From the NCBI RefSeq assembly GCF_054482595.1, contig NZ_CM137008.1: a stretch of 64,000 nucleotides of DNA; one strand, written 5' to 3'. The stretch's first letter is position 1; each line of letters starts with the position of its first letter. The position numbers and the translations under genes are program-made. The notes beneath the pieces were generated by a model. That model did no database searches. It was not told the DNA's origin and was given only the letters and a program-made list of their open reading frames with translations. Below are positions 1 to 57,176 of this stretch, one piece after another.

Positions 1-819
1 GACCATCCGAACCCTTTAGCCGCACGCCAGGCTATTTGCGACATATTCCTTAAACGCATCGTTAAAGGGAAAGGGCTGGATGTCATTGTTGATAAAACAG
101 GCGAAGAACCAATGCCGACACCATGGACGGTCTTTGAACTGGTCAAGGCAATCAGTAACGTCGATCACAGCTGGAAAGAGTTCATGCTGATCGACATGGG
201 CGGCGCAACCACCGATGTTTATTCCGCCTGTGCCAACACGCTCTCGCCCGACACCGTTTTACACGGCGTACCGGAACCCTTCGTAAAACGGACGGTGGAA
301 GGCGATCTGGGAATGCGCGTCTCGGCAGTGGTGGTTGGTGAAAGTGCGAAAGAGTTAGTCAATGTGAATTTTGCTCAGCAACCCGCACAGCTGGACGCTT
401 TTTATCATTACCTCCGTCATCTAGTCGCTCATCCCGACTACTTACCCGCAAATGCAGAAGAGAAATATTTCGATACCGTCCTGGCCGGACTGTGTGTGGG
501 TTATGCCACCGAAAGACATGCGGGCACCAAAAAAGAGGTCTGCACCTGCGTCGGCAATGTCGATTTACAGATGGGACGTGACCTGACAACCGTGCGTAAA
601 GTCGTCGGATCCGGCGGATGGCTCTCGCGTGCCAGTCAGTTCGATATGCATCACTGGTTGAAATTCCGCGAGTTAAACGACGACGGTAAACGCATTCTCT
701 TACCGACCGAATTTGAATATTACCGCGATTCCCGGGGGCTATTACCACTGCTGGCAAACGTCGCCAGAGTCGATCCGCTGGCCGCCGCGCGCACCAGTAT
801 TCAATGCTTAACCCTATAA
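1..819 (+). CDS. glmL: Glutamate mutase-associated protein GlmL/MutL (reactivating chaperone-like), 5'-truncated by the window edge
   Basis: Frame 1 is open from nt 1 to the stop at 817-819 (the listed ORF begins at an internal Met at 112). It lies directly upstream of glmE in the conserved glmL-glmE-mal order known from Clostridium glutamate mutase operons. Confidence 0.7.
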   Translation, partial: DHPNPLAARQAICDIFLKRIVKGKGLDVIVDKTGEEPMPTPWTVFELVKAISNVDHSWKEFMLIDMGGATTDVYSACANTLSPDTVLHGVPEPFVKRTVEGDLGMRVSAVVVGESAKELVNVNFAQQPAQLDAFYHYLRHLVAHPDYLPANAEEKYFDTVLAGLCVGYATERHAGTKKEVCTCVGNVDLQMGRDLTTVRKVVGSGGWLSRASQFDMHHWLKFRELNDDGKRILLPTEFEYYRDSRGLLPLLANVARVDPLAAARTSIQCLTL

Positions 820-837
820 CAATTAAGGCTGCAATCA

Positions 838-2283
838 ATGGAACTTCGAAATAAGAAATTAACCCATGACGAATTCATGACCGAGCGGCAACAGGTACTG
901 AAAACCTGGGAAACCGGCAAGGATGTTGAAAACTTTGAAGATGGCGTTAAATACCAACAAAACATTCCTGAGCATAAACGCTTCTCTCATGCCCTGCTGA
1001 AAGCAGACAAGGAAGGTAACACCCTTAGCCAACCGCGCGCAGGTGTGGCGCTGATGGACGAACACATCGAACTACTGAAAACACTGCAAGAAGAGTGCGA
1101 TCTGCTGCCGAGCACTATCGATGCATATACCCGTCTGAATCGGTACGAAGAAGCGGCTGTAGGGATTAAAAAATCCATCGAAGCCGGAACCTCTAAACTG
1201 AACGGTTTACCGGTAGTTAACCACGGCGTCGCAGCTTGCCGTCGCCTCACCGAAACCCTGCAAAAACCGCTACAGATCCGCCACGGCACGCCAGATGCGC
1301 GTCTGCTGGCTGAAATCTCGATGGCCAGTGGCTTTACCAGTTATGAAGGCGGCGGCATTTCCTACAACATTCCGTATGCCAAACGCGTAACGCTGGAAAA
1401 ATCGATCCGCGACTGGCAGTACTGCGACCGTTTAATGGGGATGTATGAAGAACACGGGATCCGCATCAACCGCGAACCGTTTGGCCCACTAACAGGTACG
1501 CTGATCCCGCCGTTTATCTCGCACTCTATCGCGATAATCGAAGGCTTGCTGGCGCTGGAACAGGGTGTGAAATCTATCACCGTTGGTTATGGACAGGTCG
1601 GCAGCCTGACGCAGGATGTTGCGGCGATCCAGTCTCTGCGTGAACTTGCACACGAATATTTTCAGAGCTATGGCTATACCGACTATGAATTAAGTACCGT
1701 GTTTCACCAGTGGATGGGCGGCTTTCCGGAAGACGAATCGAAAGCGTTCGCTATTATCTCATGGGGCGCAGCCGTCGCGGGGATGTCTGGTGCCACCAAA
1801 GTCATCACCAAAAGTCCGCACGAAGCCTGGGGCATCCCGACTGCCGCTGCCAACATTCAGGGGCTGAAAGCCTCCCGCCAGATGCTCAACATGGTCAACG
1901 AGCAGAAATTCCCGCCGTGCCCTGCGGTTGAACTGGAAATTGAACTGATTAAGAGCGAGGTTCGCGCGGTACTGAATAAAGTGTTCGAACTGGGTAATGG
2001 TGATATTGCGCGCGGTACGGTGCTGGCATTTGAAGCGGGCGTACTGGATGTGCCGTTTGCGCCAGCCGCCTGCAACGCGGGCAAAATTCTTCCGGTCCGA
2101 GACAACACCGGCGCGATACGCGTACTGGAAGCCGGAGCCGTTCCATTGCCAAAAGATATTCTCGACCTCCACCACGATTACGTTGCGGAACGCGCACGCT
2201 TTGAAGGACGCCAACCGACATTCCAGATGGTTGTAGATGACATCAATGCTGTATCCCACAGTAAATTAATAGGAAGACCATAA
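838..2283 (+). CDS. glmE: Glutamate mutase E (epsilon, catalytic) subunit, methylaspartate mutase
   Basis: 481 aa; the translation aligns along its length with my recollection of Clostridium GlmE (MEL.NKK..., PRAGVALLDEHIELL, GGGISYN.PYAK, TVFHQWMGGFP.DESKAF, SFQMV.DDI.AV). Stop overlaps the mal start (TAATG). Confidence 0.9.
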   Translation: MELRNKKLTHDEFMTERQQVLKTWETGKDVENFEDGVKYQQNIPEHKRFSHALLKADKEGNTLSQPRAGVALMDEHIELLKTLQEECDLLPSTIDAYTRLNRYEEAAVGIKKSIEAGTSKLNGLPVVNHGVAACRRLTETLQKPLQIRHGTPDARLLAEISMASGFTSYEGGGISYNIPYAKRVTLEKSIRDWQYCDRLMGMYEEHGIRINREPFGPLTGTLIPPFISHSIAIIEGLLALEQGVKSITVGYGQVGSLTQDVAAIQSLRELAHEYFQSYGYTDYELSTVFHQWMGGFPEDESKAFAIISWGAAVAGMSGATKVITKSPHEAWGIPTAAANIQGLKASRQMLNMVNEQKFPPCPAVELEIELIKSEVRAVLNKVFELGNGDIARGTVLAFEAGVLDVPFAPAACNAGKILPVRDNTGAIRVLEAGAVPLPKDILDLHHDYVAERARFEGRQPTFQMVVDDINAVSHSKLIGRP

Positions 2284-3524
2284 TGAAAATAAAACAGGCT
2301 CTGTTCACCGCTGGCTACTCCTCATTCTATTTCGATGACCAGCAGGCGATAAAAAACGGAGCGGGTCATGACGGCTTTTTTTATACTGGGGAGCCGGTAA
2401 CACAGGGGTTTAACACCGTACGTCAGGCCGGGGAGTGCGTATCGGTACAGTTGATTCTGGAAAACGGCGCGGTCGCTGTAGGTGACTGTGCTGCCGTACA
2501 GTATTCTGGGGCAGGTGGTCGCGATCCACTGTTCCTCGCAGAGCACTTTATTCCGTTCCTCAACGACCATATCAAGCCATTACTGGTAGGCCGCGATGTG
2601 GATGCTTTCCTGCCGAATGCCCGTTTCTTCGACAAATTGCGTATTGACGGCAACTTGCTGCATACCGCCGTGCGCTACGGATTATCACAGGCGCTGCTTG
2701 ATGCTACCGCGCTGGCAACCGGCCGTCTGAAAACTGAAGTGGTCTGTGATGAATGGCAGTTGCCACGCGTGGCGGAATCCATTCCATTATTTGGTCAGAG
2801 CGGCGACGATCGATATATCGCCGTCGATAAGATGATCCTTAAAGGCATCGACGTGCTGCCCCATGCGCTGATTAATAACGTCGAAGAGAAGCTGGGCTTT
2901 AAAGGTGAAAAACTGCGCGAATATGTCCGCTGGTTGTCGGATCGCATTCTAAGCAAGCGCACCAGCGCACGCTACCACCCTACCCTGCACATCGATGTAT
3001 ACGGCACTATCGGTCTGATCTTCGATATGGATACGCTTCGCTGTGCGCAATACATCGCCAGCCTGGAAAAAGAAGCGCAAGGCCTGCCGCTCTACATTGA
3101 AGGGCCGGTCGATGCCGGTAACAAGCCCGATCAAATTCGCCTGCTGACCGCGATTACCAAAGAGCTGACGCGCCTCGGTTCCGGCGTGAAAATTGTGGCC
3201 GATGAATGGTGTAACACCTACCAGGATATTGTTGATTTCACTGATGCCGCCAGTTGTCACATGGTGCAAATCAAAACCCCGGATCTGGGCAGTATTCACA
3301 ACATCGTCGATGCGGTTCTTTACTGCAATAGCCACAGCATGGAAGCGTACCAGGGCGGCACCTGCAATGAAACTGATGTCAGTGCCCGCACCTGTGTCCA
3401 CGTCGCCCTTGCCGCTCGCCCCATGCGTATGCTGGTAAAACCAGGGATGGGCTTTGACGAAGGCCTCGATATCGTCTTCAACGAAATGAATCGTACTATC
3501 GCGCTGTTGCAGGCTAAGGATTAA
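2283..3524 (+). CDS. mal: 3-methylaspartate ammonia-lyase (methylaspartase)
   Basis: 413 aa, N-terminus MKIKQALFTAGYSSFYFDDQQAIKNGAGHDGF... matches enterobacterial methylaspartase (Citrobacter-type) as I recall it; enolase-superfamily length; 1-nt overlap with glmE. Confidence 0.9.
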   Translation: MKIKQALFTAGYSSFYFDDQQAIKNGAGHDGFFYTGEPVTQGFNTVRQAGECVSVQLILENGAVAVGDCAAVQYSGAGGRDPLFLAEHFIPFLNDHIKPLLVGRDVDAFLPNARFFDKLRIDGNLLHTAVRYGLSQALLDATALATGRLKTEVVCDEWQLPRVAESIPLFGQSGDDRYIAVDKMILKGIDVLPHALINNVEEKLGFKGEKLREYVRWLSDRILSKRTSARYHPTLHIDVYGTIGLIFDMDTLRCAQYIASLEKEAQGLPLYIEGPVDAGNKPDQIRLLTAITKELTRLGSGVKIVADEWCNTYQDIVDFTDAASCHMVQIKTPDLGSIHNIVDAVLYCNSHSMEAYQGGTCNETDVSARTCVHVALAARPMRMLVKPGMGFDEGLDIVFNEMNRTIALLQAKD

Positions 3525-3527
3525 CAA

Positions 3528-4898
3528 ATGGCTCGTTCTTTTAAAGTCTTATCGCCAACGGCAATCCTCGGGTATGGATTCCCGGAAGAGAGCTTCCGCA
3601 AAGCGATGGCAGAATCGCCCGATCTGATCGCCGTTGATGCAGGCTCTTCCGATCCAGGCCCCCACTACCTCGGGGCAGGCAAACCGTTTACCGATCGCGC
3701 AGGGGTCAAGCGCGATCTGCGCTATATGATCACCGCAGGCGTGCAAAATAATATACCGGTGGTGATCGGAACGGCTGGCGGTTCTGGTGCCGCACCACAC
3801 CTGGAGTGGTGCCGAGAAATAATTCATGAGATTGCCCGGGAAGAGCACCTCTCGTTCTCGATGGCGTTGATCCCGGCAGACGTTGACAAAGCCATCGTCC
3901 ACCAGGCGCTGGATAACGGCAAAATCACGGCGCTGGATTTTGTCCCGCCGTTAACCCACGACGCGATTGACGAAAGTACGTATATCGTCGCGCAAATGGG
4001 CATCGAACCCTTCCAGCGGGCGCTGAAAGAACGCGCGCAAGTGGTGCTGGGCGGGCGCGCTTACGACCCGGCCTGCTTTGCTGCGCTCCCGATCATGCAA
4101 GGCTTTGATGAAGGTCTGGCGCTGCATTGTGGGAAAATCCTTGAATGCGCGGCAATCGCCGCAACGCCCGGCTCAGGCTCTGACTGTGCGATGGGCATCA
4201 TTGATGACAACGGCTTTACGCTGAAGACATTTAATCCGAAGCGTAAATTTACCGAAACGTCAGCAGCTGCACACACACTGTATGAGAAATCCGATCCCTA
4301 CTTCCTGCCAGGACCTGGCGGCGTGTTGAACCTGAAAGGCTGCACATTTAAAGCAGTCAATGACGGCGAAGTCTACGTCAGCGGTTCTAAGCATGAAGAA
4401 ACGCCGTATGCCCTGAAACTGGAAGGTGCACGACGGGTGGGCTTCCGCTGTCTGACCATCGCCGGAACGCGCGACCCGATTATGATCGCCGGGATCGATA
4501 AAATCATCGATGAAGTCAAAACCAGCGTTTCGCGTAACCTGTCGCTCGACGATGACAGCATTCGCATCAATTTCCACCTGTACGGCAAAAACGGGGTGAT
4601 GGGAGACCATGAACCGATGCAAACTGCCGGGCATGAGCTGGGGATTGTCCTTGATGTAGTTGCACCGACCCAGGAAATTGCCAACAGCGTTTGCTCGCTG
4701 GTGCGCTCTACCATGCTGCACTACGGCTATGAAAACCGCATCGCTACCGCAGGTAATCTGGCGTTCCCGTTCTCCCCTTCTGATATCCAGGGCGGGCCGG
4801 TATACGAATTTTCCATATATCACCTGATTGAAGCCAACGACGCTCTGCGTTTTGATTTCCATATTGAACAGGTGACGCCAGAAGGAGTTCAGGCATGA
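3528..4898 (+). CDS. DUF1446 family protein (AtuA-like), function unknown
   Basis: 456 aa; motifs resembling the AtuA/DUF1446 family (GGRAYDPACFAALP..., GKILECAA); starts 4 nt after the mal stop with no promoter space. Family assignment is from memory, not a search. Confidence 0.6.
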   Translation: MARSFKVLSPTAILGYGFPEESFRKAMAESPDLIAVDAGSSDPGPHYLGAGKPFTDRAGVKRDLRYMITAGVQNNIPVVIGTAGGSGAAPHLEWCREIIHEIAREEHLSFSMALIPADVDKAIVHQALDNGKITALDFVPPLTHDAIDESTYIVAQMGIEPFQRALKERAQVVLGGRAYDPACFAALPIMQGFDEGLALHCGKILECAAIAATPGSGSDCAMGIIDDNGFTLKTFNPKRKFTETSAAAHTLYEKSDPYFLPGPGGVLNLKGCTFKAVNDGEVYVSGSKHEETPYALKLEGARRVGFRCLTIAGTRDPIMIAGIDKIIDEVKTSVSRNLSLDDDSIRINFHLYGKNGVMGDHEPMQTAGHELGIVLDVVAPTQEIANSVCSLVRSTMLHYGYENRIATAGNLAFPFSPSDIQGGPVYEFSIYHLIEANDALRFDFHIEQVTPEGVQA

Positions 4899-5212
4899 AA
4901 CAGTCAATTGTCTCACTGGCGCAAGTCATTCGTTCGAAAAATGCCGGACCTTACGAACTGGTTTTAGATATTTTATTTAAAACGAAAGAAAACTATGAGC
5001 GAGTTAAATCATCAGGGCAATTAACCCCAGAACTGATTGCGCGCTTATATCATGTTGAACCTGACTTTATTCATCGTATTGTCTGGTTTGATCCTTCTAA
5101 CGCAGTAAAAATCGTCATGCCACGAGATATTATCTCCGGGAATGTAGGTGACAATGATGTCTATGGTGCACAGCAACATGCACCTTTATTAAATATGAGT
5201 TTCGATTTGTAA
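4895..5212 (+). CDS. DUF4387-like small protein, usual partner of DUF1446/AtuA-like proteins
   Basis: 105 aa; start ATG overlaps the stop of the upstream DUF1446 gene (ATGA), implying translational coupling; motif IRSKNAGPYELVLDI... resembles DUF4387 as recalled. Confidence 0.55.
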   Translation: MKQSIVSLAQVIRSKNAGPYELVLDILFKTKENYERVKSSGQLTPELIARLYHVEPDFIHRIVWFDPSNAVKIVMPRDIISGNVGDNDVYGAQQHAPLLNMSFDL

Positions 5213-5372: not shown

Positions 5373-6653
5373 ATGAAGACAATAAGTTTAACCACGATGA
5401 TTCTTTTGGCGCTGGTACTTGGAATGATTATCGGCGTAGTGCTCAATAACACTGCTTCACCGGAAACCGCAAAACTCTATGCGCAAGAAATATCGATATT
5501 CACGACGATTTTCTTACGACTGATAAAAATGATTATCGCTCCGTTAGTGGTCTCTACCCTGGTGGTAGGTATTGCTAAAATGGGCGATGCCAAAGCCCTT
5601 GGTCGTATTTTTTCTAAAACACTCTTTTTATTTATTTGCGCCTCATTGCTGTCAATTGCCTTAGGCTTGATAACGGTAAATTTCTTCATGCCAGGTACAG
5701 GAATTAATTTTGTTGCACACGGTGCCGAAACCACCGGAGTGGTCGCGGCAGAACCCTTTACGCTAAAAGTATTTATTTCGCATGCTTTCCCCACCAGCAT
5801 TGTCGATGCCATGGCGCACAATGAAATTTTGCAAATCGTGGTGTTCTCAATTTTCCTCGGCTGTAGCCTGACGGCGATTGGCGAGAAAGGCAGCGCCATC
5901 GTTCACGCCTTAGATTCGCTGGCACATGCCATGTTAAAGCTGACTGGCTACGTCATGCTCTTCGCTCCCCTGACCGTATTCGCTGCTATTTCAGCATTGA
6001 TTGCTGAACGAGGACTGGCAGTTATGGTGAGCGCCGGGATCTTTATGGGTGAATTTTATTTCACCATGTTATTACTTTGGGTGCTGCTTATCGGTCTGGC
6101 CATCGTTTATGTCGGCCCCTGCATCAGACGCCTGACCCGCGCCCTTTCGGAACCCGCCCTGCTGGCATTTACCACATCCAGTTCTGAAGCGGCTTTTCCG
6201 GGAACGCTTGAAAAACTGGAGCAATTTGGCGTTTCCCCCAAAATTGCCAGCTTTGTCTTACCCATTGGCTACTCATTTAATCTCGTTGGATCAATGGCCT
6301 ACTGCTCCTTCGCTACAGTTTTCATCGCCCAGGCCTGCAATATCCATTTATCCATCGGTGAACAAATCACCATGCTGTTGATCCTGATGTTGACCTCGAA
6401 AGGAATGGCTGGCGTACCACGCGCCTCAATGGTGGTTATCGCCGCCACGCTCAACCAGTTCAATATTCCGGAAGCGGGGCTGATCTTGCTGATGGGCGTT
6501 GATCCGTTCCTTGATATGGGGCGTTCCGCGACAAACGTCATGAGCAACGCAATGGGCGCTGCGATGGTGAGTCGGTGGGAAGGCGAACATTTCGGCGAGG
6601 GCTGTCGGGGTAAAGCATTAAAACCCAATGAATCGAACGTTGCTCTGCCCTGA
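5373..6653 (+). CDS. Dicarboxylate/amino acid:cation symporter (DAACS family; GltP/DctA-like), probable glutamate or C4/C5-dicarboxylate uptake
   Basis: Hydrophobic multi-TM translation typical of the GltP/DctA family. I chose ATG 5373 (MKTISL...) because GGAGG at 5363-5367 sits 5 nt upstream; the listed ORF starts at GTG 5352. Confidence 0.75.
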   Translation: MKTISLTTMILLALVLGMIIGVVLNNTASPETAKLYAQEISIFTTIFLRLIKMIIAPLVVSTLVVGIAKMGDAKALGRIFSKTLFLFICASLLSIALGLITVNFFMPGTGINFVAHGAETTGVVAAEPFTLKVFISHAFPTSIVDAMAHNEILQIVVFSIFLGCSLTAIGEKGSAIVHALDSLAHAMLKLTGYVMLFAPLTVFAAISALIAERGLAVMVSAGIFMGEFYFTMLLLWVLLIGLAIVYVGPCIRRLTRALSEPALLAFTTSSSEAAFPGTLEKLEQFGVSPKIASFVLPIGYSFNLVGSMAYCSFATVFIAQACNIHLSIGEQITMLLILMLTSKGMAGVPRASMVVIAATLNQFNIPEAGLILLMGVDPFLDMGRSATNVMSNAMGAAMVSRWEGEHFGEGCRGKALKPNESNVALP

Positions 6654-6760
6654 GGGGGATCTTAAGCAATCAGAAGCCAATGACTACGCATTTTTATAAG
6701 CCGGATCATGAAGTTAGACGGCAATTAAGTAACACTAACGTTTAAGGTGAAAAGTGAAAT

Positions 6761-8413
6761 ATGTCCAAACCATTTATCTGGCAAGAACCGTTTCTACAAA
6801 ATAAAGACGGTACAGAATATACATTAATTAGCGATCAGCATATTACAGTAACGGAATTAGACGGCGAAGAAGTGATAAAAATTGCTCCTGAAGCATTAAC
6901 GCTGCTTGCCCGGCAGGCATTTTATGAAGCCTCTTTTTTCTTACGTTCCGCTCATTTGCAACAGGTCGCCAGCATTCTTAACGATCCGCAGGCCAGTAGT
7001 AATGATAAATACGTTGCGTTGCAGTTATTACGTAATGCTGAAGTCTCAGCAAAAGGGGTATTACCCAACTGTCAGGATACCGGCACCGCAACTATTATTG
7101 CCAGTAAAGGGCAACAGATATGGACCGGAGGTAACGACGCCGAAGCCTTAAGCAAAGGCATTTACACCACTTTTCAGGAAAATAATCTGCGCTTTTCACA
7201 AAATGCGCCGCTGGATATGTATACCGAAGTCAATACGCAAACCAATCTCCCGGCGCAGATTGATATCAGCGCTGTCGCTGGTGATGTGTACCATTTTCTC
7301 TGTGTTAATAAAGGGGGCGGCTCCGCCAATAAAGCCGCGCTTTATCAGGAAACCAAATCCTTATTGCAACCAGAAAAACTGACCGCATTTTTAATCGAAA
7401 AAATGAAATCGCTGGGCACCGCTGCCTGCCCGCCTTACCACATCGCCTTTGTCGTCGGAGGGCTTTCAGCCGATCAAACCTTAAAAGTTGCCAAGCTGGC
7501 CTCAACGAAATATTACGACAATTTGCCCACCAGCGGAAACGAGCAGGGACAAGCATTCCGTGATATTGAGCTGGAAAAAGCGTTGCTCGAGGCCAGTCAG
7601 CAATTTGGTATTGGTGCACAATTTGGGGGGAAATATTTCGCTCATGATATTCGCGTCATTCGTCTGCCGCGTCACGGTGGCTCTTGCCCGATAGCTATGA
7701 CGCTCTCCTGTTCTGCCGATCGCAATATCAAAGCAAAAATTAACAAACACGGTATCTGGCTGGAAAAACTCGAACACAATCCGGGGCAATATATTCCAGC
7801 CTCATTGCGGGAAGAAAATCACGCGCAACATGTACAACTGGATCTAAACCGTCCGTTGCGTGACGTGATGCTGGATCTCGCCAGATTACCGGTAGGTACC
7901 CGCGTGTCGTTAAGTGGTCCCATCGTAGTGGCGCGCGATATCGCCCACGCCAAAATAAAAGCGCGGCTGGATAGCGGCGAATCGATGCCGGAGTACCTGA
8001 AGCATCATATTGTCTATTACGCTGGCCCGGCGAAAACACCGGAGAACATGGCCTGCGGTTCACTGGGTCCAACCACGGGCGGTCGAATGGACGGTTATGT
8101 CGATACCTTCCAGGCAGCTGGCGGCAGTCTGGTGATGTTATCGAAAGGTAACCGCAGCCAGCAGGTCACCGATGCCTGTCACAAACATGGCGGCTTCAAT
8201 CTGGGAAGTATTGGCGGTGCAGCTGCGTTACTGGCGCAAGAATATGTCAAAAGTCTGCGTTGCCTGGAATACCCGGAGCTGGGTATGGAAGCGGTGTGGA
8301 TGATGGAAGTGGAAAATCTGCCCGCATTCATCCTGGTAGATGATAAAGGCAATAATTTCTTTAGTCAGTTTGAGCAGCAACATCGCTGCGCCAGTTGCCC
8401 TGCGGGACATTAA
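6761..8413 (+). CDS. fumD: Class I (Fe-S) fumarate hydratase family protein, likely mesaconase/fumarase FumD
   Basis: 550 aa; N-terminal half with Cys-containing motifs (PNCQDTGTA) and C-terminal half typical of FumA/FumB-type hydratases; sits in the methylaspartate cluster, where mesaconate hydration is the expected next step. Confidence 0.8.
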
Positions 8414-8422
8414 GGAAAATGA

Positions 8423-9025
8423 ATGGAAGCGCGAATTTCAACTGAACGGCATGTGCAGCGCCAACAGAAATTGAAGGAACAGGTCGATACGCGCGTCGCA
8501 GCGGCGATAGAGAAAAAAGGGATCTTGATTGTTTTCACCGGCAACGGCAAAGGGAAATCCACTGCCGCGTTTGGTACTGTGACGCGCGCGGTGGGTCATG
8601 GCAAAACGGTGGGGGTTGCGCAGTACATCAAGGGGCAATGGGACAACGGCGAATACAACCTTCTCCAGCCGCTGGGGGTTGAGTTTCATATAATGGGAAC
8701 CGGTTTTACCTGGGAGACTCAGAACCGGCAAGCGGATATCGACGCGGCGAAAGAGATCTGGTCGGAAAGCAAACGGATGCTGGCTGACAAGCGTTACGAC
8801 TTAGTGGTGCTTGATGAGCTGACCTATATGCTGGCTTACCATTATCTGGATACCGAAGAAGTGATCGCTTCTCTGCAAAACCGCCCGGCACAACAAAGTG
8901 TCATTGTCACCGGACGCGGTTGCCACAGTCAGATATTAAAAATGGCGGATACGGTAAGCGAAATCCGCCCCGTCAAACATGCTTTTGATAACGGCATACA
9001 GGCCCAGCCGGGTATCGACTGGTAA
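8423..9025 (+). CDS. ATP:cob(I)alamin adenosyltransferase (CobA/BtuR family)
   Basis: 200 aa; P-loop region IVFTGNGKGKSTAAFG and overall similarity to BtuR/CobA as recalled; SD AAGGA upstream; 9 nt after the fumD stop. Confidence 0.8.
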   Translation: MEARISTERHVQRQQKLKEQVDTRVAAAIEKKGILIVFTGNGKGKSTAAFGTVTRAVGHGKTVGVAQYIKGQWDNGEYNLLQPLGVEFHIMGTGFTWETQNRQADIDAAKEIWSESKRMLADKRYDLVVLDELTYMLAYHYLDTEEVIASLQNRPAQQSVIVTGRGCHSQILKMADTVSEIRPVKHAFDNGIQAQPGIDW

Positions 9026-9032
9026 TAACTGC

Positions 9033-9051
9033 GCCTGGCATCCCGCCAGGC
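9033..9051. terminator. Short hairpin (gcctgg-N7-ccaggc) between the convergent stops of the adenosyltransferase gene and the LysR gene; possible bidirectional terminator
   Basis: Inverted repeat read from the sequence; the flanking U-tract is weak. Confidence 0.35.
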
Positions 9052-9058
9052 ACAGGTT

Positions 9059-9964
9059 TTACATCTCCTGCGGTACGACCGATTTCGCCAGCATCCATTC
9101 ACGAAATTGCTGCAAGTGCGGTGAGTCAGACTTCTCTTCCTGCCACGTCATAATAAAACGATTACCGGTACGAATAGGCACATCACAGGGGATCACCATA
9201 TCGCCACTATCCAAATCATGTTGAATAGCGAACCGTGGTAACAGCGCCACGCCGAGATTAGAGCGCACGGCGGCAATCAGCATTGAAAGCAAATCGAAAC
9301 GTGGTCCGTTATTGACCAGCGGACTGCTAACGCCAGATAAAGCAAACCACTCTTCCCAGCCAGTAATACGGGTGCTTTGATGCAGAAGCGGTAACTCAGT
9401 AAGCAGTTCTGCCACTGACAGCTTTTGATCGGACATTGCAAGCAAACTGCCGCTGCATACCGGCAAAATCTCCTCATCAAAGAGATATTCTACTTCCGCC
9501 CAGGGCGCGCAAAAATTTTCGCGCATAATGACAGCATCGTACTCCCGATTAAGAAAATCGCCGTTATTAGCTAAAGAATGAATATTAACAATAATATCGG
9601 GATGTAACTTTGTGAATTCATGTAAATTTGGGATCAACCAGTGGGTACTAAAAGTAGGATTAACGGCAAGTTCAATAACCTGAACCGTAGGCTGCCAGGT
9701 CATAATGGTATTGGTATCGCGTTCCAGCTTATTTAATGTTTCTTTTACTATCCCCAGGTAATACTTCCCTGTATCATTAAGAAAAATGCGTTTTTTAGAG
9801 TGTGAAAATAACGGAGTACGTAAAAATTCCTCCAGCGCACTTACTTGTCTGAATACTGCACTTTGGGTTAACGCTAACTCCTCTGCCGCTCTGGTATAAC
9901 TTTCATGACGTGCGACGACCTCAAAAGTCACCAGCAGTTCCGTTTTAGGTATTTTCCCTCGCAT
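9059..9964 (-). CDS. LysR-family transcriptional regulator
   Basis: 301 aa; N-terminal HTH typical of LysR-type regulators (FEVVARHESYTRAAEELALTQSAVFRQVSALEE) and a C-terminal substrate-binding-like domain. Confidence 0.85.
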   Translation of the reverse strand: MRGKIPKTELLVTFEVVARHESYTRAAEELALTQSAVFRQVSALEEFLRTPLFSHSKKRIFLNDTGKYYLGIVKETLNKLERDTNTIMTWQPTVQVIELAVNPTFSTHWLIPNLHEFTKLHPDIIVNIHSLANNGDFLNREYDAVIMRENFCAPWAEVEYLFDEEILPVCSGSLLAMSDQKLSVAELLTELPLLHQSTRITGWEEWFALSGVSSPLVNNGPRFDLLSMLIAAVRSNLGVALLPRFAIQHDLDSGDMVIPCDVPIRTGNRFIMTWQEEKSDSPHLQQFREWMLAKSVVPQEM

Positions 9965-10530: not shown

Positions 10531-10557
10531 TAAAAAAGGCCATCATACGATGGCCAA
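10531..10557 (-). terminator. Intrinsic terminator of the sdh-suc operon
   Basis: GC hairpin followed by a U-run on the minus strand (A-run 10532-10537 on plus). Confidence 0.7.
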
Positions 10558-10630: not shown

Positions 10631-11500
10631 TTATTTCAGAACAGTTTTCAGTGCTTCACCGATATCCGCCAGGCTGCGAACGGTTTTCACGCCTGCGGCT
10701 TCCAGAGCAGCGAATTTCTCATCCGCAGTCCCTTTCCCACCGGCAATGATGGCACCCGCGTGGCCCATACGTTTGCCTTTCGGCGCAGTCACACCAGCGA
10801 TGTAACCCACAACTGGCTTGGTAACGTGCTCTTTGATGTACGCAGCTGCTTCTTCTTCAGCGCTACCGCCGATCTCACCGATCATCACGATCGCTTCGGT
10901 CTGCGGATCTTTTTCGAACATTTCGAGAATGTCGATAAAGTTAGAGCCAGGGATCGGGTCACCGCCGATACCGACACAGGTCGACTGACCGAAACCGTAA
11001 TCCGTGGTCTGTTTAACCGCTTCATAGGTCAGTGTACCGGAACGGGAAACGATACCCACTTTACCCGGTTTGTGAATGTGACCCGGTTGGATACCAATTT
11101 TGCATTCACCCGGGGTGATAACGCCTGGGCAGTTCGGGCCGATCATACGAACGCCGGCTTCATCCAGTTTCACTTTCACAGTCAGCATATCCAGCGTCGG
11201 GATGCCTTCAGTGATGGTGATAATCAGTTTGATGCCTGCGTCGATGGCTTCCAGAATGGAGTCTTTGCAGAACGGTGCTGGTACGTAGATAACAGAAGCG
11301 GTAGCGCCAGTAGCAGCAACAGCTTCACGCACTGTGTTGAACACCGGCAGGCCGAGGTGGGTAGTACCGCCTTTACCTGGGGTTACGCCGCCAACCATTT
11401 TAGTGCCGTATGCAATGGCCTGTTCTGAGTGGAAAGTCCCCTGGCTACCGGTAAAGCCCTGGCAGATAACCTTGGTGTTTTTATCAATTAAAATGGACAT
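10631..11500 (-). CDS. sucD: Succinyl-CoA synthetase alpha subunit
   Basis: 289 aa, translation matches E. coli SucD as recalled ([45 protein letters not shown]...). Confidence 0.97.
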
Positions 11501-12666
11501 TATTTCCCCTCCACTGCGGCAACAACCTGCTGAGCTGCATCCGTCAGACCTTTTGCTGCAATAATATTCAGGCCGCTGTCAGCCAGTTTCTTCGCGCCGA
11601 GTTCGGCGTTGTTACCTTCCAGACGTACCACGACCGGTACGTTAACACCCACTTCCGCTACCGCGCCGATGATACCGTCAGCGATCAGGTCGCAACGAAC
11701 GATACCGCCGAAGATGTTAACCAGAACGGCTTTCACTTTGTCGTCAGAGAGAATGATTTTGAACGCTTCGGTTACACGTTCTTTGGTTGCGCCGCCGCCA
11801 ACGTCCAGGAAGTTAGCCGGTTCGCCGCCGTGCAGTTTAACGATGTCCATCGTACCCATCGCCAGACCTGCGCCGTTAACCATACAACCGATGTTACCGT
11901 CCAGCGCAACGTAGTTCAGTTCCCACTGTGCAGCCTGTGCTTCACGTGAATCTTCCTGCGACTGGTCACGCATTTCGCGCAGATCAGGCTGGCGGAACAG
12001 TGCGTTGCCATCAGCGCCCAGTTTGCCGTCGAGGCAAATCAGATCGCCCTGTTTGGTAATGACCAGCGGGTTGATTTCGATCAGCGCTAGGTCGCGCTCC
12101 AGGAAAATGGTCGCCAGGCCCATGAAGATTTTGGTGAACTGCTGAACCAGTTTACCTTCCAGACCCAGTTTGAACGCCAGCTCGCGTCCCTGATACGGCA
12201 TCGGGCCAGTCAGCGGATCAAGCGCAACTTTATGGATCAGGTGCGGAGTTTCTTCCGCCACTTTTTCGATTTCCACGCCGCCTTCGGTGGAGGCCATAAA
12301 GACCACACGACGGGAACTACGGTCTACAACGGCACCGAGATACAGCTCTTTAGCGATATCGGTCGCTGCTTCAACCAGAATCTGGTTAACCGGTTGGCCA
12401 TTGGCATCTGTTTGATACGTTACCAGACGCTTGCCGAGCCAGTTTTCTGCAAAAGCACGGATGTCTTCTTTGCTGTTTACAACTTTCACACCGCCCGCTT
12501 TACCGCGGCCACCAGCGTGAACCTGACATTTCACTACCCACGGACCGGCACCGATTTTTGAAGCGGCTTCTTCTGCTTCGCGCGGAGTAGTACAGGCATA
12601 ACCCACCGGTGCTGGTAAGCCATAGCGGGCAAACAGTTGTTTTGCCTGATATTCATGTAAGTTCAT
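11500..12666 (-). CDS. sucC: Succinyl-CoA synthetase beta subunit
   Basis: 388 aa, [61 protein letters not shown]...; 1-nt overlap with the sucD start. Confidence 0.97.
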
Positions 12667-37212: not shown

Positions 37213-38349
37213 TTACGAAAGCCCGCTCCCCGCAAGGACTGACGCCAGATAGTTTCTGTCCATGGCTGCTTTTCGCATCTTACGTCTTAACCCTGCCTTG
37301 AATACCTTATCATTCGTCAAAATATTAATAGCAATGTGCCGTATCCCTGAAAATAATTCTGCTGCATTTCCTCTTCTTATTTTGCAGTCGTCTTCATTCA
37401 TTACCACGTCCAGACGCCAGTGCAGCTTATTCTCCACGTGCCAGTGGTTTCGGATTGCTGTGGCGAACTTCTCTGCGGTTAAATCAGCAGAACTGATATA
37501 ATATCTGACCGTCATTTCTGGCTCTTTCTTTTGTTCTGCTATTATGGACCGAAAGGAGACTGCCACGCATAATTTCTTCAGCCCTTTCCATTCAAACGTG
37601 AAATCAATAAGTTCATCAGGGACATCGCAAACATTATGAAGACGGATCTCTTCTCTGCCGTGACTCTTTTCACTCATTGCGTAACTGTCATGCTCTGGAT
37701 TATTTAATTCTTTCAGTGGAAATTTTTCCTCAAAGGCTTTATTAAGCCGCCCCTGATTTCCTTTTACAGCGAATAAATAATCACCGCCCTGTTTTTGTAT
37801 CTTCTCTGCGATATCTTTCTGGCAACCCATCGCATCAGTTGTGATAATTTTTCCTTTAATATCCAGCATGTTAAGAAGTTCAGGGATAGCTGTAATCTCA
37901 TTAGATTTCTCATCCGTCTTGATCTGTCCGATGACCAGACTGTGCATTGTTGAGAACGCACTAATGACATGAATCGCTCCCCTGCGGCGACTCTTGTCAT
38001 AAGAGTGCCGGAGCGTTTTTCCATCAATTGCAATGACGTCTTTATCATCTGAAGAATGGCAGTCACGCATCCAGTTAATAAAGCACTCGTGAAATTTTGC
38101 AGGACTGATACAGGATACAACTCTGGCAATGGTATCGTGAACAGGAATACCATTTTCAAAATCACCATATTGCTTCAAAAAATCGAGATGTGTTTCCCCA
38201 AAATCCTCTATATCTTCCCAGCCTTCTGCACCAGAAATAACGGCACAAATAGTCAACAGTAGAATATCCGATAATTTATGCTCCACTTTCCAGGCTTGTC
38301 TGTAATCAGGGATAATAGAAATATGTTCCATCAATTTTTTAAGTTCCAT
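37213..38349 (-). mobile_element. H-rpt (H repeat-associated) element of an Rhs locus: intact 378-aa ISAs1-family transposase-like ORF
   Basis: 378 aa, [64 protein letters not shown]... matches the YhhI/H-rpt protein family; element ends not determined. Confidence 0.85.
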
Positions 38350-38987
38350 TTTGTTCTCCTTAATTATGTAAGGAGTATTTGATCATGTATAAGCAATAAA
38401 AAACAGCTTCAGGTAATGAGGAATATCTCAATTTTTAAACATAAAATGCGAATTATTTAGTACAAAAAGTGAACTTCTGATGATCTTTCCCTGTGATTGC
38501 TTCCCGTTTCCCGATACGGCGGCGCGGGGAGTCATAAAGGTAAGAAATTTCCAGCAGTACAGCGTCCTATTGTTCACGGCGGTAATGCACCAACCAGTAT
38601 TGGCTATCGTAGTGATAACCGTGTAACCTGCCGCCGCATCGCGTATCTAATGTTCATTCTTTTCCATAAACCGTCCGTACACATTGTGATAGTAAAAATA
38701 CAATACATCTTCGCTGATGCGGTTATTCTGCTGCATGTGGGGAGCGCCGAATACTGCTCCCGGTATGGCCAGTAATTACTATTTAGTACGACGTTAGGGG
38801 GAGTCACTTAATCTCACAGATACTTCAAGTAACAGATGAAAATCGCTCCTGAAATGAAAAAAGAAATTTTTTTGAATGTGTTCCTGTCAAATCAAGTGGT
38901 TTTTTCGTCGATATGTAGAGTCATATTGTACACAAAATTGTTACGAAACACACCTTGGTAAAATATTTGAATCGACTGTACAGTGGA

Positions 38988-39290
38988 TTATTTTGTGTGT
39001 ATTACATTCAACACTTGCCCATCTTTTTTCGCTATTAGTATTGTAAAATTTCCTCCTAAAGTCTTCGGTTGTTTTCCCTCGATTTTCCAACAATTATTGT
39101 CATCTGTAATACTATATGGTTTCTGAAATTCTGCTTTTTCTTTCCCGTATACATATTTAATGTAAACATATGATAATTCCAAAGCCATTTCACGACTATT
39201 TACTAAAATTTCCACTGGATTTTCTTTTCCAAATACTTGTTATGATATTGTAAACAATATCATAATAAGTAATATTAGTGAGTTTCTCAT
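38988..39290 (-). pseudogene. Small secreted-protein ORF interrupted by an in-frame TAA at codon 17 (plus-strand 39240-39242)
   Basis: From ATG (39288-39290, minus strand) the frame reads MRNSLILLIMILFTIS-TAA-QVFGKENPVEILVNSREMALELSYVYIKYVYGKEKAEFQK...HTK. A signal-peptide-like N-terminus continues in the same frame across a single stop. Confidence 0.5.
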
Positions 39291-39458
39291 GTTCTACACC
39301 TATCGAATCTCAAAAGCTGTGGGTAAAACATTACATTCAGAATATATGATATTCTTACCATCGGAATCCATTTTTCCAAATCGACCTTCTGGTGTACCTG
39401 GATATCCATTAAGAACATGTTTTTCCGAATGGTTAATTTATTCTCTCAGGAAGATGTT

Positions 39459-40028
39459 TTATTTTTCTTCACTACGAAGCAGTTCATGCTGTATTTTTGT
39501 TAAACATTCGTAAGACTCATCTTTGTTCGGGAGATGTGCTGTCATTCGAGCATAAGTTGGCTTCTCATCTTTAAAATATTTAACCATGATTGAATTATCA
39601 AGGACTGCCAACAACTGAGCTGGATCACTGCTCTTTTTTTGATAGATACCCGCTCTTATATAACTTCTAAACCGATCGCCGAGAAACGCCGTTTTTTCTG
39701 CTGTATTTATCAACTCCTGCAACGTTCCTTTGATGGCATGATTTTCATTAAGGCGTAGTGACCCGACACGAATTAAGAGTCTCGCCCCGCTTGATGTGAA
39801 TTTATTATTTTTACATGTACCCAGTTCTGTTTGCCAATAATACTCACCGATGTCCTCATTCTGATACCATCTCCACATGGCTTTATTATTTAAGACAGGA
39901 AACGCGGAAAAAATAGTACCCTTAGCGAAAATAGTAAAACAATCATGATCTTTAGCTTGTATTTCGCAATCAGCTATAACACCAAAATTAACAAATATCA
40001 TCAGCAAAAAGAACAAAACTCTTTTCAT
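39459..40028 (-). CDS. Putative Rhs immunity protein (periplasmic; signal peptide)
   Basis: 189 aa, [19 protein letters not shown]|DCEIQ...; its ATG overlaps the rhs stop (ATGA); AT-rich like the Rhs C-terminal tip. It may correspond to K-12 ybfC, but this was not verified. Confidence 0.65.
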
Positions 40029-43000
40029 TTTCTTATTCCTCTCGATGTTCTCTGTTTCATTTTAGCTAAAATTTCACCCAAATCATCTATCCCTGCTGTT
40101 GCTGGCCCATCGGGTTTATTAATGTCTGGGAATAAATAGGGTTCTGCACAAGTATATCCTGGTGGTAATTGAGTTGTTGGCCAATTTGTCTGTGGCAGGT
40201 AATCACTTGCTGTCTTTGTATCCATCCCTGGATACTGGGGATCATCCTGTGGCGTACAAGTCAGATTTGGTTTTACCCACTTCCTGCAATACAGTGTGTA
40301 GTCGTAAGGGCTTAATGCTCTGAAGAATGTTTTGAAAACATTAGGCGCACTACTGGCCTGGTCAATAGGATATGGCAGTCTTAATTGTTTCGCTATGTCT
40401 GGCAATTTACTTGGATCGGGCGTAGGCGGTTTGTTGGGTCTCGCTCCATATCCGCCATTATTTAAGTGTCCATATTTTGATGCCAGTCCCATTGAATCTA
40501 TATACTGAACCGGATTCAACGGATACTGATAAAAATTCCATCCCCCCTTCAGTCCAATCGGATCCTGAGTGATATACCTCCCCTGCAGCGGGTCATAATA
40601 GCGGTGGCGGTTGTAATACAGGCCGGACTCCTCATCATACTGCTGACCCGGCAGGCGGATGAGCTGCTGCAGCTGGTGCGGGTTCTCTTCATTCAGCTGG
40701 TTACCCCATTCATCGTATTCTGCGTACCACGCTGTTGTCCCTTCCGTGCTGATAAGCGCCAGCGGCAGGCCGCGATGGTCGCAGTGGTACAGGTGGATTT
40801 TTCGCGCCGGCGTGTACACCGGGTCCATCTGGTTTTGCATCTGCTTCACCGTCAGGCCGCACGATGCCAGCCAGCGGCGGCTTTCCTCACTCACCCGGTC
40901 AGCCAGGATTTCACTTTCCAGCCGGTCGAGCATCTGCACCAGCACCGGCGGGAACACCACACTGCCACCGTCTTCACCGCCGGACTGCTGAAGGGCATCC
41001 GCCAGGCTGCGGCGCTGCGTTCTGGCCAGTTCACCGGTGGCAGTTTCAACTCTGATGAGTGGTGTGAAGCTCCCCGGCTGATAAATCGTCTGGATGCGGG
41101 TTCTGTCGTTCTGTATCGTGGTCAGGCGGTCGCCATCCCAGCCGTACCAGGTCACTTGCGGTTTCCGTGACAGCGACATCCAGCCCGTCAGGTCCCGTTC
41201 ACGTCGCCATACCCGTTTTGCCACCCTGCGGCCCAGCGGGTCGTAAAGATAGCGGCTTTCGACCAGCGGCTCTGCATATTGTGTCCGCGTGTAGTGCACC
41301 AGCCGGTGCTGACTGTCGTAATGGTACCGGTGGGTGCGCTCATCATCCGTGCGGATAACCCCTTCCGGGATGAGGTCGGTTTTCTCTGTCAGTCTGCCGT
41401 GACGGTCATACCGGTAAAGATAGTGCGCGTCACGGGCGATACGGTTATCCGGCCACATGCTGAGGGTGCTGTCCGGGTGCAGCTCCGGGTCGGGCAGGCG
41501 GTTACCTGCCGGGTCCGTGGCATACGGGATGCGGATATCAAGGTTCGCTGCCGTGGTGTGAACGCCGGTCAGCCTGCCGGAGTCGCTGTAGCTGTAACTC
41601 CGGGTATGGCGCGGGCTGCTGATGCGGATGAGTTCGCCGTTGTCGTTCCAGGTGTAATCGCGGTCAGACTGCAGGCTGTTCAGGTGCTGGCTCTGTAACT
41701 GCCCGGCAGGGGTATAAGCGGTGGTGAGTTCATAATGGCCGAAGCTGCGCAGCGTTTCCCGGTGCAGGCGGTCGCGGGTGAAATCCACCAGCGGTGTGTC
41801 GCCGAGCTTCATGCCTGACAGCCAGCCGCTGCCGTAGGTCAGCCATTCCACGGCGGGCAGGCTGTCCGGTATACAGCGGTTCGCCAGCCCCTGCGCGTTG
41901 TAAGCGTGTCTGGTCTCATGCTGCCAGAGCAGTGCTTCCGTCTGCGGGTGATGCACCGTCTGACGCTCACCGGTCAGGCGGCCTTTCTCATCATACCTGT
42001 AATGCACCGCTACCCGGTGCCCTTCGCTGATATGGCTGATGTCTGTCAGCCAGCCACGTTCGTCATACCGCCACCGCTCTGCGGTTTCACCCTTCACGGT
42101 GCGGTGCGTGAGGCGGTCTGCTTCGTCATAGTGCCAGTGGGTGACCAGACCCTCATCCTCGCTGCGGATAAGTTTGCCGGTCAGGTCGTGGTGATAATGC
42201 TGTGTGCGGCCGTCAAAGCCGGTTTCCTGTATCAGCCGGTCGAGTACATCGTAACGGAAGGTGGTGTGGCTGCCGTTTTCACTGGTCAGGCGGATGACCC
42301 GTCCGGCAGCATCGTATTCCATACTGCGCGTCAGACCGCCCTGCGTGGTACGGATGGCCTTTCCCCACGCATCGTACTGTGTCCCGTTTCTGCTGCCGTC
42401 CGGAGCAATGACGGCGGTCAGGTCACCGGCGGCGTTGTATTCATACCGCATTTCATGGCCCTGCATGTCTTTCACGGCAATTAACCGTCCACGGCTGTCG
42501 TATGCGCGGTACTGACTCAGCCCTTCCTCGCGGTGCACCGCCGTCATCTGCCCGAAACGGTCATGGTCATAACGGGTTACATAACCGGAACAGTCGGTGA
42601 AGCTCAGCAACTGGCCGTAACGGCTCCACGTCATGGTTTTCCGGCTGCCGGTGGCATCGTCCGTTGCGCAGGGTAAGTCACTGTGTGGATTATCATAACG
42701 GTAGCGGGTGATATCGCCGTCAGGGGCGGTTTCCTGAATCAGACGGCCGGATTCATCATATTCCCGGCGCATTTCCAGCCCGTCAGGCCCGGTGGCTGAC
42801 GTTAACTGGCTGTGGTGGTTATAGTAAAATGCCGATGCCCTGCCATCCGGTGTGGTGATGCGCGTGATGAGTCCCGTCACCACATCCGGGCTGTATTCTG
42901 TTGTCCGGCCTGCGGCATCCGTCTGTGCCTTAAGCCTGCCCACCGCATCAAACTGACTCTGCGTGACGCTGCCGTCCGCGTGTTCCTTTTTCACCACCCG

Positions 43001-44224
43001 CTTCAGCCCGCCTTCGCCCTGCGTGTGCAGCACTTCACGGCGGTCCAGGCTGTCGGTGATGGTGATGCGGTTTTGCTCATAACAGTAGGTGTAGCTTAAG
43101 CCCGCCGGGTTAAGCTGCTCTGTCACCCGCCCGTCGCTGTCGTAACGGTAACGGATTTCCGGTCGGCCCGTGTGACGGTGCGCCACCATCCGGCCCCGGT
43201 ATTTATCATCGTAAGTAAAGCTGCGCACCTGTGTATTGCTGCGGTCATACACCGCCGCCAGTTCGCCGCGTGGCGTCCAGCCATAGCGCACCAGCGGCGC
43301 GGCTGGCAGGTTGTCCGGGTATTCCGGGTCGTGCGTCAGCCACACGGCAGACAGACGGATGCCGTTGTCCCGGCCATATTCGGTGTAACCCGGCAGGGTA
43401 TCAGGAAAAGCGGACGGTTCCGTCCCGCCGGAAGAGGCCTGCTGCCGGGCTTCTTCTGCCCGCTGCGCCTGCGTGGTCAGTACCAGCCGGAAGTGACGCC
43501 CGGCACCATCCGTCACGCCGGTGATTTCGCCGCTGAATTCACCGGCGGCTTCGCGGTGGAACGTCTGTGTGCGCCCGAAGCGGTCCACCAGCCCGGTCAG
43601 TACCCGGTACGGCGGCAGCGGCGCAGGCAGCACCTCATCCGCTTCCGGCACCCGCTCACACCAGCCGAGCAGCCACCACGGCCCCTGCGGACTGTTTGTC
43701 GCCAGATAACGATGCGGACTTAAGCGGAGTTCTTCCGGCAGCGCCTGCCAGAGTGCGGCCAGCCGGTGACCTTCATCCAGTTTCGCCACGCCGCCGCGCA
43801 CCAGCCACAGTGACTCGCTGCGGCTGTAACCGTCCTCACCGGGAAACAGGTGCTCAAAATACAGGCTTCTGCCGCCGTTATCACTGAGTATCAGTGTGTT
43901 ATCGCGCAGCTGTAAGCGGATATCCGCAGGCATTTTCCAGCCGGGGCCGAGGCTCCCCACCGGCGCGGGCGTTTTTGTCCGGTAACTGCTGTAGGTGCGG
44001 GAGAGAATGAACGGCAGCGGGGCGGGCAGGGCGATGTCGGTTTCACCGGGAAGGACCTTTGCACCGAGCAGCGGATTGACCGGATGGCCGGACGTCACCC
44101 CGCCGGGGCACACCGAACAGGCCACGCCGGTGGGGGCACCAATACGTACCCCGGCTGAACCCTGGACAATGCTACCGCCATACTGCGTCATGTCGCCCTG
44201 ACGCGCCGCCGGTTTTCCGCTCAT
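40025..44224 (-). CDS. rhsC: Rhs family protein (RhsC-type): PAAR-like N-terminus, YD-repeat shell, variable C-terminal toxin tip
   Basis: 1399 aa, [42 protein letters not shown]...; many YD/RYxYD repeats; core ends near ...[16 protein letters not shown] (40484-40498), followed by a 152-aa AT-rich tip (40028-40483). Confidence 0.93.
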
Positions 44225-56645: not shown

Positions 56646-57176
56646 ATGGCTATCACTGGCATCTTTTTCGGCAGCGACACCGGTAATACCGAAAATATCG
56701 CAAAAATGATTCAAAAACAGCTTGGTAAAGACGTTGCCGATGTCCATGACATTGCAAAAAGCAGCAAAGAAGATCTGGAAGCTTATGACATTCTGCTGCT
56801 GGGCATCCCAACCTGGTATTACGGCGAAGCGCAGTGTGACTGGGATGACTTCTTCCCGACTCTCGAAGAGATTGATTTCAATGGCAAACTGGTTGCGCTG
56901 TTTGGTTGTGGTGACCAGGAAGATTACGCCGAATATTTCTGCGACGCATTGGGCACCATCCGCGACATCATTGAACCGCGCGGTGCAACCATCGTTGGTC
57001 ACTGGCCAACTGCGGGCTATCATTTCGAAGCATCAAAAGGTCTGGCAGATGACGACCACTTTGTCGGTCTGGCTATCGACGAAGACCGTCAGCCGGAACT
57101 GACCGCTGAACGTGTAGAAAAATGGGTTAAACAGATTTCTGAAGAGTTGCATCTCGACGAAATTCTCAATGCCTGA
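56646..57176 (+). CDS. fldA: Flavodoxin 1
   Basis: 176 aa from [63 protein letters not shown]... Confidence 0.97.

Follow-up and report, generated by a model that had tools for sequence, protein, structure and literature searches.

The gene at positions 8423-9025 of the DNA analyzed here (a stretch of 64,000 nucleotides from contig NZ_CM137008.1 of NCBI RefSeq assembly GCF_054482595.1, hereafter the window) is by family an intact CobA/BtuR/CobO-type ATP:corrinoid adenosyltransferase gene, with a predicted activity to match. The explanation that we favor, and consider probable, is that its product works as a CobA-type ATP:co(I)rrinoid adenosyltransferase and is made together with FumD, the gene being the last of a glutamate mutase/methylaspartase/mesaconase cluster. 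To judge from the sequence comparisons below, it is a paralogue of long standing, which branches as the sister of BtuR from all Enterobacterales. The genes and signals around it are as follows; the start of glmL lies before the window.

1..819, + strand: 3' part of glmL (mutL), glutamate mutase accessory and putative reactivating protein (RefSeq; PF13941 MutL in orthologous clusters)
838..2283, + strand: glmE, glutamate (methylaspartate) mutase E subunit, adenosylcobalamin-dependent (ORF and RefSeq; PF06368 in orthologues)
2283..3524, + strand: mal, methylaspartate ammonia-lyase (ORF, RefSeq and orthologous clusters)
3528..5212, + strand: AtuA/DUF1446-family gene (3528-4898) and DUF4387 gene (4895-5212), both conserved cluster members
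5373..6653, + strand: dicarboxylate/amino acid:cation symporter, GltP-like (RefSeq, 11374-12654 minus an offset of 6001; PF00375 in orthologues)
6761..8413, + strand: fumD, class I fumarate hydratase/mesaconase, 550 aa, directly upstream of cobA (ORF and RefSeq)
8411..8422, + strand: fumD stop codon TAA overlapping a Shine-Dalgarno sequence TAAGGAA, then 6 nt before the cobA ATG (sequence)
8423..9025, + strand: cobA, island-type (RefSeq cobO, WP_000388204.1; ORF, PF02572, TIGR00708 and 1G5R alignment)
9029..9060, no strand assigned: GC-rich hairpin with core stem GCCTGGC/GCCAGGC, then TTTT, in the 33-nt gap between cobA and the convergent lysR
9059..9964, - strand: lysR, LysR-type regulator, convergent with cobA (ORF and RefSeq; same position in all cluster copies)

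The cobA gene, its product and its signals

From cydA to sucD, the RefSeq annotation reads two hypotheticals, glmS, glmL, glmE, mal, the AtuA-family gene, the DUF4387 gene, the symporter, fumarate hydratase and cobO, with the LysR gene convergent. The glmS, glmL, glmE and mal genes are therefore annotated in the same cluster as cobA, and the preliminary description was right to set the adenosyltransferase alongside GlmL. The glmE product is presumed to be the enzyme that the cobA product serves, and the fumD orthologue of O157:H7 has been characterized biochemically (PMC4682846). This region is 99.9-100% identical to E. coli XH990 and others, and in E. coli K-12 the site is occupied by mngR-mngA-mngB instead of the cluster.

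An ATG-to-TAA open reading frame of 200 codons lies exactly at 8423-9025 on the + strand, separated from fumD by a spacer of 9 nt. Its product matches PF02572 (CobA_CobO_BtuR) over the entire profile (1-172 of 172, E = 5e-64, 216 bits against the Pfam cutoff of 25.7), as well as the NCBIfam equivalog TIGR00708 'cobA' (245 bits, cutoff 167.75) and NF004637 (294 bits, cutoff 185). The closest solved structure is Salmonella enterica CobA 1G5R (also 1G5T, 1G64 and 4HUT; E = 3e-88): residues 6-200 of the window protein align with residues 2-196 of 1G5R without gaps at 68% identity, and the two are predicted to share the same fold. E. coli BtuR is 67% identical, again with no internal gaps, the window protein having four extra N-terminal residues. 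The only Pfam match besides PF02572 is a weak one to PF12557 (an N-terminal motif), and no Pfam match placed the protein in the PduO-type or EutT-type families. Given the reading frame, the profile and structure matches and the position next to fumD, the preliminary description, which had reported a 200-aa CobA/BtuR-family enzyme immediately after fumD, is correct as to coordinates, length and family. The gene is real and was rightly identified; at the level at which it was claimed, it is already known and ordinary.

Residues of the window protein are numbered four higher than those of Salmonella CobA, such that Phe91 and Trp93 become F95 and W97, and position 165 becomes Ser169. The P-loop (Walker A) reads GNGKGKST (G40-T47), against GNGKGKTT as the MgATP-binding motif; the replacement of Salmonella Thr42 by Ser within it is conservative, fixed in the cluster-linked clade described below, and the common state in outgroups. 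Equivalents of Salmonella Arg9, Arg51, Asp127, Glu128, Arg161 and His164 are all found. The loss of the P-loop and active-site residues had been named in advance as the observation that would count against the assignment, and alignment to BtuR/CobA finds all of them in place. Over 81 Enterobacterales sequences (16 cluster-linked and 65 housekeeping), 76 positions are invariant, catalytic residues included, and among these are G40-N-G-K-G-K45, T47, F95, W97, D131, E132, R165 and H168 in window numbering. F95 and W97 are also invariant in 11 outgroups and 116 further representatives; Phe91 and Trp93 are reported, in the title of Moore et al. 2012, to generate four-coordinate cob(II)alamin.

The fumD-cobA junction has a common form in all 16 loci: the TAAGGAA of the window is TAAGGAG in 14 of the 15 orthologues and TAAGGGG in the remaining one, followed in each case by 6 nt and ATG. 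This conserved arrangement of stop codon and Shine-Dalgarno sequence suggests that fumD and cobA are co-transcribed and translationally coupled. No promoter-like site that could serve cobA separately was found on the + strand between 7098 and 10093, and promoter-like sites are no more numerous than in shuffled sequence. Downstream of cobA, the hairpin at 9029-9060 (RNA fold of -22.7 kcal/mol, z = -4.3 against shuffles) is probably a weak two-way terminator. A simple terminator scan called no classical terminator after cobA, and it missed this hairpin because the T-run is short. In a permissive Rfam scan of 15 kb, spanning the cluster and its neighbors cydA and sucD, neither a B12 riboswitch nor any other Rfam family was detected.

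Distribution, age and selection

When 5426 complete E. coli genomes were examined with a sensitive DNA search, the housekeeping btuR gene (yciK-btuR followed by rluB, about 68% DNA identity to the window gene) was found in 5422, as the preliminary description had supposed in saying that E. coli already has a btuR elsewhere (67% identical in protein). The cluster cobA was found in 1121 of these genomes (20.7%), always at full length and with 97-100% identity; 40 copies were sampled, and each is annotated as an intact CDS. Cluster-bearing E. coli genomes have two places for an adenosyltransferase gene. The glmE-mal segment is present in 1131 genomes, with at least 80% coverage in 1121; since cobA is likewise found in 1121, it is a constant part of the E. 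coli cluster.

A scan across species, each represented by a single genome, split the loci by identity into two clearly distinct groups. The first comprises 15 loci at 80-85% identity, from several Citrobacter, Salmonella enterica subsp. arizonae and diarizonae, Klebsiella michiganensis, Lelliottia, Buttiauxella and a Raoultella MAG. Searches with the neighboring proteins (tblastn) recovered the order glmL-glmE-mal-atuA-DUF4387-gltP-fumD-cobA, with lysR following, at every one of the 15, and within the fetched DNA sucD lies just beyond the cluster in eight. The second group comprises 65 loci at no more than 70% identity, all of them yciK-btuR and nearly all with rluB downstream within the fetched DNA. 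At least 10 genomes are represented in both groups, by one locus in each. The cluster arrangement around cobA is the same in Enterobacter cloacae and Salmonella enterica, save that an additional gene, for a glutaminase, stands between those for the transporter and FumD; the Salmonella cluster also has, next to sucD, a gene for a PocR-type regulator and a uroporphyrinogen methyltransferase-like gene. These additional genes agree with Fig. 5 of Kronen & Berg 2015.

In neighbor-joining trees with 200 bootstrap replicates and 11 outgroups, the cluster-linked sequences form a clade in 200/200 replicates, the Enterobacterales housekeeping sequences in 156/200, and the two together are separated from the outgroups in 188/200. 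These values mark the gene as an old paralogue. Recent duplication of E. coli btuR can be set aside, as the cluster-linked clade branches outside all Enterobacterales BtuR and is in fact slightly nearer to the BtuR of Pectobacterium (70%) than to that of E. coli (67%). Nor does the window gene belong to the housekeeping btuR group by context: its upstream neighbor is fumD and its downstream neighbor lysR, and the same holds for the 15 orthologues. Of the earlier claim of a second copy, what survives is that there is an extra gene beside btuR, at a separate place; that it is a recent btuR duplicate is not borne out by the tree.

The median dN/dS is 0.043 in the cluster-linked clade and 0.026 for housekeeping btuR from the same genomes, indicating that cluster cobA is under purifying selection. 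Decay into a pseudogene is ruled out by this dN/dS of about 0.04 and by the full length of the gene in all 1121 genomes. Synonymous sites are saturated between E. coli and other genera for both cobA and btuR.

The preliminary description had also called the cluster an island. This is overstated, and the cluster is better described as an accessory segment, present in 21% of E. coli. No mobility genes (integrase or transposase) are annotated between cydA and sucD, and the GC content of glmS through cobA (0.51-0.56) resembles that of the flanking core genes (0.52-0.56), with only a stretch of 34-38% GC beside cydA deviating. In Citrobacter, Salmonella and Klebsiella the cluster likewise lies on the sucD side, a constant site across genera. 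Among 72,556 plasmid records, the only matches were to records of 0.4-4.9 Mb, which are evidently chromosomes or very large replicons, so that genuine plasmid copies are absent. Recent horizontal import or plasmid mobility is rejected on these grounds, together with the saturated synonymous divergence.

Proposed role and alternatives

The comparative evidence gives good support to the proposal that cobA would provide a dedicated supply or regeneration of coenzyme B12 for glutamate mutase, a connection to which linkage, selection and analogy all point. A need for extra capacity is consistent with findings in E. coli K-12, where growth on pseudocobalamin is held back by the native btuR level and evolved lines raise yciK-btuR mRNA 5- to 15-fold (PMC11841063). 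The chemistry can be sketched from the Salmonella CobA paradigm. MgATP would be bound by the P-loop, and cob(II)alamin would be held four-coordinate by the Phe95/Trp97 pair; flavodoxin or free reduced flavin would then give one electron to bring the cobalt to Co(I), which would attack the C5' of ATP to yield adenosylcobalamin. E. coli does not make B12 and imports non-adenosylated corrinoids, and glutamate mutase loses its cofactor through side reactions; for these reasons, induction of the cluster would raise the adenosylating capacity at the time when the mutase needs its coenzyme. GlmL would release damaged cofactor, which the cobA product would re-adenosylate. As E. coli has no de novo B12 pathway, the enzyme must act on salvaged or released corrinoids.

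Several observations count against the favored explanation, among them the missing B12 riboswitch, the unexpressed cluster and the lost Arg165 (see below). Kronen & Berg 2015 found no condition under which the cluster was expressed in E. coli O157:H7 ATCC 700728, whether hydroxo-, cyano- or adenosylcobalamin was supplied or left out. The clostridial glutamate mutase clusters in the legend of their Fig. 4 are without an adenosyltransferase, so the mutase in general needs no linked one. Because BtuR and EutT are already present, the extra cobA copy may not be strictly required. One could go further and see in it a redundant duplicate that travels with the cluster and has no function there, and the existence of BtuR and EutT in E. 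coli, together with the failure to see expression, is what such a reading would have in its favor. We strongly disfavor it and give it hardly any probability, given that the dN/dS is low, the gene is full length in the E. coli genomes and in every genus examined, the catalytic residues are all invariant, and the clade is old yet intact.

The difference between the two clades at Salmonella position 165 is one small new point. All 65 housekeeping Enterobacterales enzymes have Arg here, as do the two nearest outgroups, and the 16 genes of the cluster-linked clade all encode Ser, Thr or Ala. The residue is never Arg in the 116 further cluster-linked representatives (51 Ala, 43 Ser, 18 Thr, and one each of Asn, Val and Lys). 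The acidic residue at 166 (Asp or Glu in the housekeeping enzymes) is replaced in the cluster-linked clade by Gln, Leu or Arg, and a four-residue N-terminal extension, M-E-A/T-R, is conserved in all of its proteins. Further clade-fixed changes, in Salmonella numbering, are T42S, I/V62A, P70D, Q85H, V86I, A88G, L121Y and L140T. Together with Arg9, Arg165 is a putative docking residue for flavodoxin FldA in the housekeeping enzyme of Salmonella and E. coli; in the work of Buan & Escalante-Semerena from 2005, the two residues reportedly matter for FldA-dependent adenosylation and not for catalysis. Of this pair the window protein has the first (R13) and has Ser169 in place of the second. Without Arg165, the usual reductant route may not hold as it stands, and we treat altered FldA docking as a lead and not as a result.

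It is conceivable, if rather unlikely, that the enzyme is instead a specialized partner of the mutase that has diverged in how it receives electrons or hands over its product, using another reductant or free flavin in place of docked FldA and perhaps delivering directly to GlmS/GlmL. The pattern at 165, the lost acidic state at 166, the conserved extension and the reported FldA role of Arg9 and Arg165 would all fit, and PduO-type enzymes pass adenosylcobalamin directly to methylmalonyl-CoA mutase. To our knowledge, a dedicated or escort role has so far been described only for PduO-type and EutT-type adenosyltransferases. Against this reading, the Arg9 equivalent is kept in every sequence compared, no obvious reductase is encoded in the cluster, and the docking role of 165 is itself putative. 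Position 165 also varies among more distant family members, so Arg is not a family-wide requirement there and its loss is compatible with membership, and at sites 42, 88, 121 and 133 it is the cluster-linked clade that keeps the outgroup state and the housekeeping clade that has changed.

This retention of ancestral states at several sites also weakens a further reading, which we consider improbable: that the paralogue adenosylates corrinoids that are poor substrates for BtuR (pseudocobalamin, other cobamides or incomplete corrinoids), and thereby widens the range of cofactors open to glutamate mutase. CobA-type enzymes already have a broad corrinoid range, with the lower ligand displaced, which speaks against a need for such a specialist. 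What commends the idea is that clade-specific substitutions fall at Salmonella 85, 86 and 88, just before the Phe91/Trp93 loop, and that, as noted above, the dosage of BtuR is limiting in K-12 for the use of pseudocobalamin, which is abundant in the gut (PMC11841063).

Relation to known systems

The gene is already known from its RefSeq annotation and from Kronen & Berg 2015 (PLoS One 10:e0145098), where the same gene appears in Fig. 5 as 'CobA, cob(I)alamin adenosyltransferase', the legend listing GltP, FumD, CobA and the LysR regulator beside glutamate mutase and methylaspartase. That paper labels CobA only, with no sequence, phylogeny, comparison with btuR or activity. The share of E. coli strains with the cluster is put there at 26.5%, compared with 20.7% of complete genomes here; the paper also places the cluster in most O157:H7 and names the clusters of Yersinia enterocolitica and Morganella morganii. 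The Sakai locus tag of the window gene should be ECs0756; in the literature searched, no paper mentioning ECs0755, ECs0756 or ECs0761-0764 was found, and no paper on the gene beyond Kronen & Berg 2015.

The importance of the gene is modest: with it, an accessory cluster that is carried by roughly one in five E. coli, and by many Citrobacter, Enterobacter, Salmonella and Klebsiella, comes with a cofactor-activation step of its own. This is relevant to activating the silent glutamate-to-citramalate pathway, or to engineering mesaconate or citramalate production, where the cofactor form and the presence of cobA should be controlled. The paired paralogues, at 67% identity and with the same catalytic residues and a different putative reductant-docking site, also constitute a natural experiment on the electron source of CobA-type enzymes.

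Compared with Salmonella CobA and E. coli BtuR, the window protein belongs to the same Pfam and NCBIfam family and length class, aligns without gaps at 67-68% identity and has the same catalytic residues; it differs in its separate clade (200/200), the N-terminal extension, the clade-fixed changes and the loss of Arg165. The loci differ as well, BtuR being encoded at yciK-btuR and the window gene at glm-mal-fumD. CobO of Pseudomonas denitrificans shares the PF02572 family, and RefSeq names the window gene cobO, but the Pseudomonas enzyme acts on cobyrinic acid a,c-diamide in de novo aerobic B12 synthesis (PMC7242693).

The closest parallel in logic is with PduO of the pdu and EutT of the eut systems, in which the genes for an adenosylcobalamin-dependent enzyme and its reactivating factor are accompanied by one for an adenosyltransferase, which regenerates the coenzyme locally (PMC7242693); the family and these dedicated enzymes are reviewed in PMC7242693 and PMC4083273. 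PduO with PduGH, and EutT with EutA, follow the same logic as that proposed for cobA with GlmL. PduO and EutT nevertheless belong to protein families unrelated to that of the window protein, and the glm-mal-fumD cluster is without microcompartment genes and without a dedicated reductase such as PduS. To a B12 specialist an operon-borne adenosyltransferase will come as no surprise, such enzymes being long established in pdu and eut; here the client-linked enzyme is of the CobA type and forms a conserved clade of its own.

The AtuA/DUF1446–DUF4387 pair and the transporter–fumD gap

Two genes of the cluster, an AtuA/DUF1446-family gene and a DUF4387 gene, overlap by 4 nt, and in each cluster copy seen, in all genera, this pair is flanked by mal and the transporter gene.

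3528-4898, +, AtuA/DUF1446-family gene, 456 aa
4895-5212, +, DUF4387 gene, 105 aa

Both genes are obvious candidates for the step that these bacteria would take beyond (S)-citramalate (PMC4682846). Further along the E. coli cluster, the transporter gene and fumD are separated by just 107 nt (6654-6760); at this position the loci of Enterobacter cloacae and Salmonella enterica carry a glutaminase gene (PF04960).

L085 7255-8256 and L087 7244-8245, glutaminase gene (PF04960), 333 aa

Judged by the spacing between transporter gene and fumD, the Citrobacter, Klebsiella and Lelliottia loci also have a glutaminase gene there.

Replicons and other genes of the window

When the plasmid collection was searched, the cluster was found on records labelled as plasmids (H73-H76, the matches in that collection), with lengths of 4.9 Mb, 730 kb and 416 kb; these are evidently chromosomes or very large replicons under a wrong label. 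The lone place labelled as plasmid in the E. coli genome searches is probably explained by the same mislabelling.

Flavodoxin FldA is the known reductant of Salmonella CobA, and fldA, a core gene adjoining fur, shares the 64-kb window with the cluster cobA; most likely its map position near cobA is coincidental. The window also holds an RHS element; 3' of its core gene lie ybfC and a gene for NTF2-fold immunity, and an ISEc1-family transposase adjoins this region.

about 56646-57176, +, fldA (flavodoxin FldA)
about 37213-44224, -, RHS element core protein, about 1400 aa

Edges of the accessory segment

On the cydA side, between cydA and glmS and just 5' of the window, two hypothetical genes lie in DNA with a GC content of 34-38% (2987-4435 of L001, the matching E. 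coli cydA-to-sucD region). Nowhere else is the composition foreign in the segment that stands in place of the K-12 genes mngR-mngA-mngB. On the other side, downstream of sucD, there is a strong terminator-like hairpin with TTTTTT directly behind it.

10538-10555, -, terminator-like hairpin

Because this hairpin sits at the site of the 3' end of the K-12 sRNA gene sdhX, the sucD-sdhX end appears intact next to the accessory segment. Unlike E. coli, which lacks them, Salmonella enterica carries genes for a TP_methylase (uroporphyrinogen methyltransferase-like), a PocR/AraC-type regulator and an Asp/Glu racemase between the cluster and sucD (L087, L088 11993-14845).
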